Assembly: GCA_965235115.1 (NCBI GenBank)
Contig: OZ249436.1
Location: 9,488,001-9,552,000, forward strand
DNA: 64,000 bases
Origin: Laetmonice hystrix
Lineage: Eukaryota
Reading direction: 5' to 3'
Part shown: positions 43,945-45,704 of the stretch, in pieces
Layout: every line of letters begins with the position of its first letter
How positions within the stretch are numbered: position 1 is the stretch's first letter
Made by a program: the position numbers and the translations under genes
The notes under the pieces: generated by a model
Databases searched by the model: none
What the model was told of the DNA's origin: nothing
Seen by the model: the letters and a program-made list of their open reading frames with translations, nothing else

Positions 43945-45704
43945 AGAGGACTATACAACTTTTCTCTTTAGGGACATTGTCAAAGTAATTGGGTTACCCC
44001 TGATGCCCGTGCATTTCAAAAGAAAAATACAGTCTACGCCAGTGCCAGGATTACCTTAACAGTCAATGTTCGGTAGAAATCATGTGTAGCTCTAACTAGG
44101 AAAATATGGATTCCGTCTCATTTCAAAAAGATGTGTGTAGGGGGGAGGGTCCATTGTCCTGCTCGACCACCAAAGCTCCTTTTTTAGGGGAGTGGCGGTG
44201 GCCTAGTGGGCATGGATGTCGACACCTTATGCTATGCGAATGGGTGCAGTAATCTTAGGGCCTGGGTTCGATTCCTGTAGAGGACTATACAACTTTTCTC
44301 TTTAGGGACATTGTCAAAGTAATTGGGTTACCCCTGATGCCCGTGCATTTCAAAAGAAAAATACAGTCTACGCCAGTGCCAGGATTACCTTAACAGTCAA
44401 TGTTCGGTAGAAATCATGTGTAGCTCTAACTAGGAAAATATGGATTCCGTCTCATTTCAAAAAGATGTGTGTAGGGGGGAGGGTCCATTGTCCTGCTCGA
44501 CCACCAAAGCTCCTTTTTTAGGGGAGTGGCGGTGGCCTAGTGGGCATGGATGTCGACACCTTATGCTATGCGAATGGGTGCAGTAATCTTAGGGCCTGGG
44601 TTCGATTCCTGTAGAGGACTATACAACTTTTCTCTTTAGGGACATTGTCAAAGTAATTGGGTTACCCCTGATGCCCGTGCATTTCAAAAGAAAAATACAG
44701 TCTACGCCAGTGCCAGGATTACCTTAACAGTCAATGTTCGGTAGAAATCATGTGTAGCTCTAACTAGGAAAATATGGATTCCGTCTCATTTCAAAAAGAT
44801 GTGTGTAGGGGGGAGGGTCCATTGTCCTGCTCGACCACCAAAGCTCCTTTTTTAGGGGAGTGGCGGTGGCCTAGTGGGCATGGATGTCGACACCTTATGC
44901 TATGCGAATGGGTGCAGTAATCTTAGGGCCTGGGTTCGATTCCTGTAGAGGACTATACAACTTTTCTCTTTAGGGACATTGTCAAAGTAATTGGGTTACC
45001 CCTGATGCCCGTGCATTTCAAAAGAAAAATACAGTCTACGCCAGTGCCAGGATTACCTTAACAGTCAATGTTCGGTAGAAATCATGTGTAGCTCTAACTA
45101 GGAAAATATGGATTCCGTCTCATTTCAAAAAGATGTGTGTAGGGGGGAGGGTCCATTGTCCTGCTCGACCACCAAAGCTCCTTTTTTAGGGGAGTGGCGG
45201 TGGCCTAGTGGGCATGGATGTCGACACCTTATGCTATGCGAATGGGTGCAGTAATCTTAGGGCCTGGGTTCGATTCCTGTAGAGGACTATACAACTTTTC
45301 TCTTTAGGGACATTGTCAAAGTAATTGGGTTACCCCTGATGCCCGTGCATTTCAAAAGAAAAATACAGTCTACGCCAGTGCCAGGATTACCTTAACAGTC
45401 AATGTTCGGTAGAAATCATGTGTAGCTCTAACTAGGAAAATATGGATTCCGTCTCATTTCAAAAAGATGTGTGTAGGGGGGAGGGTCCATTGTCCTGCTC
45501 GACCACCAAAGCTCCTTTTTTAGGGGAGTGGCGGTGGCCTAGTGGGCATGGATGTCGACACCTTATGCTGTGCGAATGGGTGCAGTAATCTTAGGGCCTG
45601 GGTTCGATTCCTGTAGAGGACTATACAACTTTTCTCTTTAGGGACATTGTCAAAGTAATTGGGTTACCCCTGATGCCCGTGCATTTCAAAAGAAAAATAC
45701 AGTC
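43945..45704 (+). mobile_element. Head-to-tail 5.27-mer of a 334-bp tRNA-promoter (SINE-like) element inserted in a satellite monomer
   Basis: AGAGGACTATAC recurs at 43945, 44279, 44613, 44947, 45281 and 45615; the insert ends at 45704. Satellite sequence stops at ...GGGAGGCCAAA and resumes at AGGAGTCCCTAC. Confidence 0.92.
44186..44519 (+). ncRNA. Putative 334-nt Pol III transcript (representative monomer)
   Basis: A box TGGCCTAGTGG 44199-44209, B box GGTTCGATTCC 44265-44275, purine start 13 nt before the A box, T6 at 44514-44519. The 5' and 3' halves are complementary. Transcription itself is inferred. Confidence 0.6.

Follow-up and report, generated by a model that had tools for sequence, protein, structure and literature searches.

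Several described systems share parts of their organisation with the locus analysed here, as far as the cited accounts cover them. Animal non-LTR retrozymes are non-coding and form tandem monomers of ~300 bp (PMC7229834; bioRxiv 10.64898/2026.07.22.740005), and circular RNA intermediates and mobilisation by Penelope-like elements (PLEs) have been proposed for them (PMC7229834; PMC4209133; bioRxiv 10.64898/2026.07.22.740005). Schistosome SINE-like hammerhead elements of the Sm-alpha type combine a Pol III-type promoter with a tandem arrangement (PMC6765202). Among PLEs, non-autonomous Chlamys elements such as MRC1 are multicopy, head-to-tail, and similar at the 3' end to an autonomous PLE (PMC8557442), and the Anolis Poseidon PLE, PAc, starts reverse transcription internally, at a structured site that marks its genomic 3' ends (PMC11167929). 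That internal initiation was shown in vitro (PMC11167929), and the RNA of Athena and Coprina PLEs has target-matching telomeric repeats for attachment (PMC8557442). Helenus, Ajax, and Cassandra link a small-RNA-type Pol III promoter to a non-LINE retroelement (PMC10886601), and SINE-derived satellites are tandem SINE-related arrays that contain SINE portions (PMC10702118).

The window (the whole stretch of Laetmonice hystrix DNA that was analysed, 64,000 nucleotides) harbours a 334-bp unit that is a young, dispersed, non-coding mobile element with thousands of copies. The unit is 334-336 bp long, occurs in arrays of up to 11.4 near-identical copies, and has no ORF of more than 50 codons. Its transcript start and stop were placed from the A box, the B box, the T6 run, and a pile-up of 5' ends of insertions; we take 44199-44209 and 44265-44275 to be the A and B boxes by comparison with the Pol III promoter consensus. 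The features of the unit are as follows.

44186..44519, plus strand: predicted Pol III transcript unit, start at A/G (44186-44187), end in T6
44199..44209, plus strand: A box TGGCCTAGTGG, with a G at 44204 in older copies
44265..44275, plus strand: B box GGTTCGATTCC, fitting the box consensus and an Rfam T-loop match
44294..44297, plus strand: internal T4, which may act as a weak Pol III terminator and has to be read through for a full transcript
44514..44519, plus strand: T6 Pol III terminator; array junctions have T6 or T7, then A and the next unit

The plus strand is the working strand, as the original prediction had assumed, and the absence of a tRNA cloverleaf was also borne out: ARAGORN found 0 tRNA genes in the unit and Rfam only the 11-nt T-loop match, which is present in an older copy too. 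Promoter A and B boxes function at the DNA level, so their pairing within the folded RNA is irrelevant to transcription. The internal T4 could truncate transcripts. Sequence patterns searched across the genome (627 Mb, 35 contigs) matched the head 3,726 times, the tail 5,129 times, and the stretch after the start 2,924 times, with 0 matches to reversed controls, and these counts therefore correspond to roughly 2,200 insertions.

Within the window, the unit occurs in two insertions inside a satellite array.

43945..45704, plus strand: insertion 1, a permuted head-to-tail run of 5.3 units that opens with unit 93-334, continues through four full units, and closes with 1-182
46544..48303, plus strand: insertion 2, which arose when a 2599-bp DNA block holding insertion 1 and one satellite unit was later duplicated
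36567..64000, plus strand: host satellite array, 848-bp period, 29 copies seen, a target common to the unit and the PLE

The units of insertion 1 are letter-identical apart from one A>G at 45570, and the two insertions have 0 differences over 1,760 bases. Three target bases were lost at the insertion and there is no target duplication. The 848-bp satellite has 73-75% identity to the satellite (C7) that harbours a PLE array (L061); the array also contains 821-bp variants and ACAGT-rich internal subrepeats of 18 bp. Elsewhere in the window are minisatellites at 5086-6201 (34 bp, 33 copies) and 31185-31667 (69 bp, 7 copies), and three long MITE-like inverted repeats (13820-14255, 14732-15193, 28568-28746). 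The minus strand carries two paralogous pairs of coding pieces (6966-8527 and 15536-17243), which presumably resemble aerolysin/ETX-MTX2-type pore-forming proteins; a Pfam search with all four pieces returned 0 hits at E 0.1.

We surveyed insertion ends in 60 fetched loci on contig C1 and in the window, which together gave 105 insertions with both ends in view; the 60 loci share a single chromosome and were chosen by pattern matches, and several of them sit in the same satellites, so the counts are not independent. The 3' ends are fixed, with 94 of the 105 insertions ending at unit positions 172-184 and 84 at 179-182 (44365-44368), while the 5' ends are scattered. Fifty-three of the 94 are single-round and 41 run across the unit junction, as many as 11 times in one insertion; exact unit-junction matches number 2,159 genome-wide. 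Following the element's AAAAATAC, the next letter is A in 67 of 68 distinct junction contexts and the one after it G in 57, and insertion therefore uses short homology to TACAG-type targets. Priming homology past position 182 was rejected, as the junction letters match the element only up to 182. Target duplications are variable (31 bp in L003, 39 bp in L009, 24 bp in L012, and 13 bp in L015) and absent at other sites. A minisatellite of ~35-40 bp with TACAGTC is a recurrent target (L006, L019-L024, L027-L029, L035-L038, L053, L055), with up to 10 insertions clustered within a few kb. Two element copies in L040 (937-1561) face each other head to head, like the inverted 5' arrangement that has been described for PLE insertions.

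A GIY-YIG search of the same genome identified a young PLE family with a 759-codon open frame encoding a reverse transcriptase and GIY-YIG endonuclease. It forms tandem arrays of ~5.58 kb units, whose period is constant within an array and differs between arrays. It has the Cys-rich linker that the account cited describes in Neptune and Nematis PLEs (PMC8557442). A long, separate upstream frame (L064:1170-2600, L061:3-1286) encodes a NADAR domain (E 1e-24) together with a GDSL-like stretch that scored below the cut-off. A descriptor search recovered a minimal type I hammerhead at L064:1194-1225, which Rfam missed. We also noted a second PLE family (L063:1303-4480, G000:C17) with a 789-codon frame, which continues past a single GCCAGTGC motif into telomeric repeats and has copies near contig ends.

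The unit and the 3' region of the young PLE have one module in common.

44308..44404 (unit 122-218), plus strand: module common to the unit and the PLE 3' region, closed by helix H6

The module matches the PLE (L064) just past its stop codon (blastn E 1e-4 and 5e-6), about 730 nt upstream of the hammerhead, and the match spans both sides of the insertion end; the rest of the unit had no other match below E 0.7 to the whole PLE unit. All 20 PLE copies sampled end 12 bases or less from the shared site, and most of them share their satellites with the small element. The unit displays every feature of a non-autonomous PLE that we tested: partial-tandem, 5'-truncated, head-to-tail insertions; 3' similarity to the autonomous PLE with a common insertion end; and variable target duplications with a common target choice. 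We are highly confident that the unit depends on the PLE, whose protein would mobilise it in trans.

Inside the shared module, the insertion ends fall in a loop that is framed by two copies of a short motif.

44333..44336, plus strand: P1 closing helix, 5' arm CCTG, pairing in related PLE rows
44339..44346, plus strand: first GCC(A/C)GTGC motif, which 26 of 66 related PLE loci retain shortly downstream of their ORF stop
44347..44371, plus strand: template loop, in which insertions end (44365-44368), matching the target TACAG(T)
44372..44379, plus strand: second GCC(A/C)GTGC motif, as in related PLE loci
44380..44383, plus strand: P1 closing helix, 3' arm CAGG, pairing probability 0.42 in the monomer

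In the unit this structure (44333-44383) is the apex of the predicted rod, so that the apex is where the PLE starts reverse transcription, a central point that the original prediction had overlooked. For comparison, we assembled 77 metagenome loci with related PLEs (L084-L160), 66 of which have enough flanking sequence. GCC(A/C)G(T/C)GC occurs within 150 nt of the stop codon in 26 of the 66. The reverse strand gives 1 of 66, and background tiles give 64 of 2,254. Where the sequence continues, a second copy follows 31-88 nt after the first and the flanks pair, and the key letters of both GCC(A/C)GUGC motifs are invariant among these loci, so that the motifs may pair with each other or may each form a small hairpin; examples are L137:4614-4707, L146:4630-4730, L105:5345-5414, and L086:4450-4522. 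The arms of the closing helix pair better with their own partner (-10.8 kcal/mol) than with swapped ones (-4.1 kcal/mol; 0 of 20,000 permutations, 14 of 24 rows), a difference that the relatedness of the rows and their selection by eye may inflate. The ten rows dropped were near-duplicates (L122, L139, L142, L145, and the second L159 row), one nested row (the second L147 row), and four others (L091, L141, L152, and the first L159 row); when L091, L141, and L152 were later restored (17 rows), the result was -9.6 versus -3.9 kcal/mol, again with 0 of 20,000 permutations. In some PLEs the repeats in the loop are telomeric, in others they are of the CA or CATA type; the loop of the unit has AAAATACAGT. 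Terminal PLE copies continue from the loop into matching genomic repeats. By analogy, a module with a covarying closing helix and a target-matching loop resembles the telomerase template, and it is possibly a clade-wide template module that has so far gone undescribed.

The unit had been read as a viroid-like rod whose ends are brought together by seven nested helices. All seven helices (H1-H7) are found where they had been placed, together with the closing helix GGGGAG/CTCCTT, and across the seven there are exactly eight G-U pairs versus one C-A mismatch. The excess of G-U pairs is no proof of RNA-level selection: the helices were hand-picked and the strand is G/U-rich. Folded as a whole, the unit is no more stable than shuffled sequence; 59 of 100 shuffles were as good as the plus strand (-95.3 kcal/mol, z 0.25) and 56 of 100 as good as the minus strand (-78.0 kcal/mol, z 0.23), and circular folding gave z 0.44 and 0.32, respectively. 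The original prediction had named a z-score that does not beat shuffles as grounds for refutation, and for global stability this is the outcome. The plus strand is indeed the more stable of the two, but the gap is mostly compositional (G 87, C 67 in the unit), because each strand equals its own shuffles.

The picture differs by part of the molecule. Restricted to pairing of the 5' half with the 3' half, the rod reached z -3.2 on the plus strand (0 of 100 shuffles as good) and z -2.6 on the minus strand (1 of 100). With 1,000 shuffles for each part, the outer stem had z -3.7 (0/1000), the middle z -1.7 (49/1000), and the inner part z -2.7 (13/1000), and the outer stem of the minus strand z -2.8 (8/1000). 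In these models the signal sits in the outer stem and the inner part, and the middle of the rod is marginal.

44186..44232, plus strand: outer stem, 5' arm (closing helix, H1-H3), pairing probabilities mostly above 0.9, z -3.7
44469..44515, plus strand: outer stem, 3' arm, with a two-sided closing-helix change in L022 and L037

Pairing probabilities were 0.79-1.00 for the closing helix, 1.00 for H1, 0.48-0.97 for H2, 0.89-0.92 for H3, and 0.70 for H6. H4 (0.00), H5 (0.00), and H7 (0.03) were rejected as features of the ensemble, and enforcing all seven helices gave -79.7 instead of -95.3 kcal/mol, a penalty of 15.6 kcal/mol. An alternative, nearly unbranched fold (-94.5 kcal/mol) lies 0.8 kcal/mol above the minimum. 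Among 112 circular permutations of the unit, the best rod axis (-93) passes through the junction of unit start and T6 and through the opposite pole, the runner-up axis reaching -83; nothing in a tandem array tells the fold where this junction is. Within the family, one two-sided change in the closing helix was found, at two loci (L022 and L037), and the rest are one-sided. Recurrent outer-stem changes are likewise mostly one-sided, and some break pairs (positions 39, 42, and 288); covariation within the family is weak because the family is too young. The closing hairpin is retained despite subfamily change. On this modelling, the holding together of the 5' and 3' ends by the predicted outer stem is real, and the viroid-like rod is overstated: overall stability equals that of shuffles, three of the seven helices fall outside the ensemble, no ribozyme was found, and the element has thousands of DNA copies.

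The search for ribozymes in the unit covered several classes. Rfam reported none down to E 10, and the hammerhead core CTGANGA is absent from both strands, the same descriptor having recovered the PLE hammerhead. Hammerhead and HDV-like descriptors gave no match, nor did short cores for twister, hairpin, and pistol ribozymes. A hairpin ribozyme at ACA/GUC and a decayed hammerhead at CUGAUG were considered and rejected, as their stems do not form. An unusual ribozyme could still reside in the unit, because Rfam also missed the minimal hammerhead of the PLE.

Put together, these observations suggest the following life cycle. Pol III would initiate at the A/G that lies 13 bases upstream of the A box and terminate in T6, yielding a 334-nt RNA. 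The predicted outer stem would keep the two ends of this RNA adjacent, with the PLE-derived module presented at the opposite pole. Host enzymes may then ligate the ends into a circle, or the reverse transcriptase may jump the gap in every round. The insertion ends show that copying begins internally, in the loop between the GCC(A/C)GUGC motifs, with UACAG(U) matching the target. The PLE protein would bind the module, nick TACAG-like sites, circle the template several times, and fall off at scattered points; an insertion with a whole unit keeps its own promoter and terminator and could seed the next round. We regard this chain as a whole, a Pol III-driven, ribozyme-free PLE partner copied from a circular or end-joined monomer, as probable.

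Whether the circle is covalently closed bears on the earlier proposal that the fold juxtaposes the ends for ligation; the juxtaposition held, and the insertion pattern fits a circular and a pseudo-circular RNA template alike. Units are identical throughout in five of six fetched arrays with at least three full units, and nine of ten arrays are distinct from each other. A long array has either T6 or T7 at all its junctions, with T6 in some arrays and T7 in others, and the junctions are letter-identical in 11 of 11 cases in L032, 6 of 6 in L013, and 6 of 6 in L003. Uniformity within arrays combined with difference between arrays is a one-template signature, although uniform arrays could also arise by DNA-level expansion, as seen here in the 2599-bp block. 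Among multi-round insertions, 7 of 35 5' ends stop at 177-188, having completed full turns of the template, where 1.3 would be expected (p 2e-4). A Pol III RNA, with its 5'-triphosphate and 3'-OH, would need end processing before ligation. On balance we lean slightly towards a covalently closed RNA circle.

The explanation that survives best beside this one dispenses with ligation: the outer stem would make the RNA a pseudo-circle, and the PLE reverse transcriptase, on reaching the 5' end, would jump in every round to that molecule's own 3' U-tract. Retroelement enzymes can jump end to end, no ligase would be required, and the outer stem is the best-supported structure of the unit. The 5' ends of insertions also pile up at the unit start; 10 of the 53 single-round 5' ends lie at unit 1-2, versus 10 at 3-10, and adding four upstream bases to the unit-start pattern reduces its matches from 2,797 to 2,159, a figure without mutation correction. 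It follows from the pile-up that linear RNA is often the template, or that the junction hairpin stalls the enzyme. Repeated jumps should, however, vary within an array, whereas the junctions in L032, L013, and L003 are uniform, and we therefore consider jumping unlikely, if clearly worth keeping in mind, as the general source of the arrays.

Less likely still is that arrays were copied from linear multimers, produced by Pol II or by leaky Pol III read-through, or that they expanded as DNA by slippage or unequal crossing-over. One proposal has PLEs copying multimeric RNA without prior processing, and in vitro ribozyme cleavage was dispensable, according to the work cited (PMC11167929). Insertion 2 arose by duplication at the DNA level, and some old arrays are mixed (L022, L023). 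Against this, private variants are present in every unit of an array, the partial end units included, and loci differ; 11 turns would mean reading through 11 T7 runs, arrays copied from multimers could only get shorter, and an end-joining stem centred on the start/T6 junction would be left unexplained.

The original prediction had classed the unit as a tRNA-derived SINE, and an ordinary LINE-mobilised 180-bp tRNA-type SINE (unit 1-180), whose arrays would be SINE-derived satellites and whose rod would be due to chance, would agree with the A and B boxes, with the 53 of 94 insertions that are single-round and resemble 180-bp SINEs, and with a global folding z of about 0. This reading is largely refuted and we give it very little credence, since the partner is a PLE whose homology lies on both sides of the insertion end, copying begins within the unit and not at its tail, no LINE partner was found upstream of 20 tail-only loci, the outer stem has z -3.7, and 41 of the 94 insertions extend across the junction. 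Replication from RNA to RNA by an endogenised viroid-like RNA, with DNA copies as by-products, would fit the size, the near-optimal and almost unbranched fold (-94.5 kcal/mol), and the lack of an ORF of more than 50 codons, but it is the most improbable reading of all, given a stability not above shuffles, no ribozyme found, an intact DNA-level promoter and terminator, and very low diversity among young copies.

Returning to the end-joined monomer, its most far-reaching form would be a ribozyme-free circular RNA retroelement, that is, a host-ligated Pol III transcript that is copied by rolling circle by a PLE through a clade-wide, telomerase-like module that sets target choice. We advance this version tentatively, judging it somewhat less probable than its negation. 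Two jobs that are combined in retrozymes would be separated in the unit: a monomer with joinable ends is provided by the Pol III promoter, terminator, and stem, and recruitment of the PLE by the 97-nt module. The unit may thus serve as a natural minimal substrate for studying PLE RNA choice, the start site, and whether the tandem arrays originate from RNA circles. The module looks general, as the loops of related PLEs hold telomeric repeats or microsatellite units and the loop of the unit holds the satellite's TACAGT. Telomerase is the sister group of PLE enzymes, and if the loop sets the target, PLE insertion would be RNA-guided in a telomerase-like manner.

Compared with the systems above, the unit combines features in its own way. 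The unit was rejected as a LINE-dependent SINE because it is partnered by a PLE and is copied from a mid-unit start, 150 nt ahead of T6. SINE-derived satellites are described, in the parts of the account used here, without a fixed internal start or PLE partner (PMC10702118); the unit does not belong with them either, its arrays being dispersed, short, made of whole units, and with one fixed end. Helenus, Ajax, and Cassandra share the Pol III promoter with the unit but are LTR elements, as the cited text presents them (PMC10886601). Athena and Coprina resemble the telomere-type relatives found here in their target-matching repeats but are reported to be without endonuclease, whereas the relatives have GIY-YIG and a two-motif frame around the repeats (PMC8557442, in the sections consulted). 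PAc has an internal, structured start like the unit, yet it is autonomous and its start site is without target homology, whereas the unit's loop matches the target; the passages cited do not describe a bipartite GCC(A/C)GUGC module (PMC11167929). The MRC1-type elements are green algal and belong to a clade with an N-terminal endonuclease, and the relevant sections make no mention of a Pol III promoter, terminator, or end-joining stem (PMC8557442). In the literature searched we found no PLE partner that is driven by Pol III and free of a ribozyme, and no description of the two-motif module; supplementary or repeat-database consensus files may hold some.

The closest likenesses are with hammerhead elements. 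In the Sm-alpha type, on the evidence of the sections cited, the hammerhead cuts multimers and single copies lose the promoter (PMC6765202), whereas one full unit here has both promoter and terminator, and no ribozyme was found in it. Retrozymes, as defined in the part of the source cited, have a type I hammerhead in every unit (PMC7229834), which the 334-bp unit is without. Relative to the retrozyme descriptions available in these sources, the unit has its ends defined by a Pol III promoter and T6, and its link to the PLE is the module where reverse transcription starts and not the ribozyme-bearing part. Retrozyme pipelines based on the hammerhead would overlook such elements. Although it falls outside the definition by hammerhead, the unit appears, by analogy, to work like an animal retrozyme: PLE-dependent, tandem, and probably circular.
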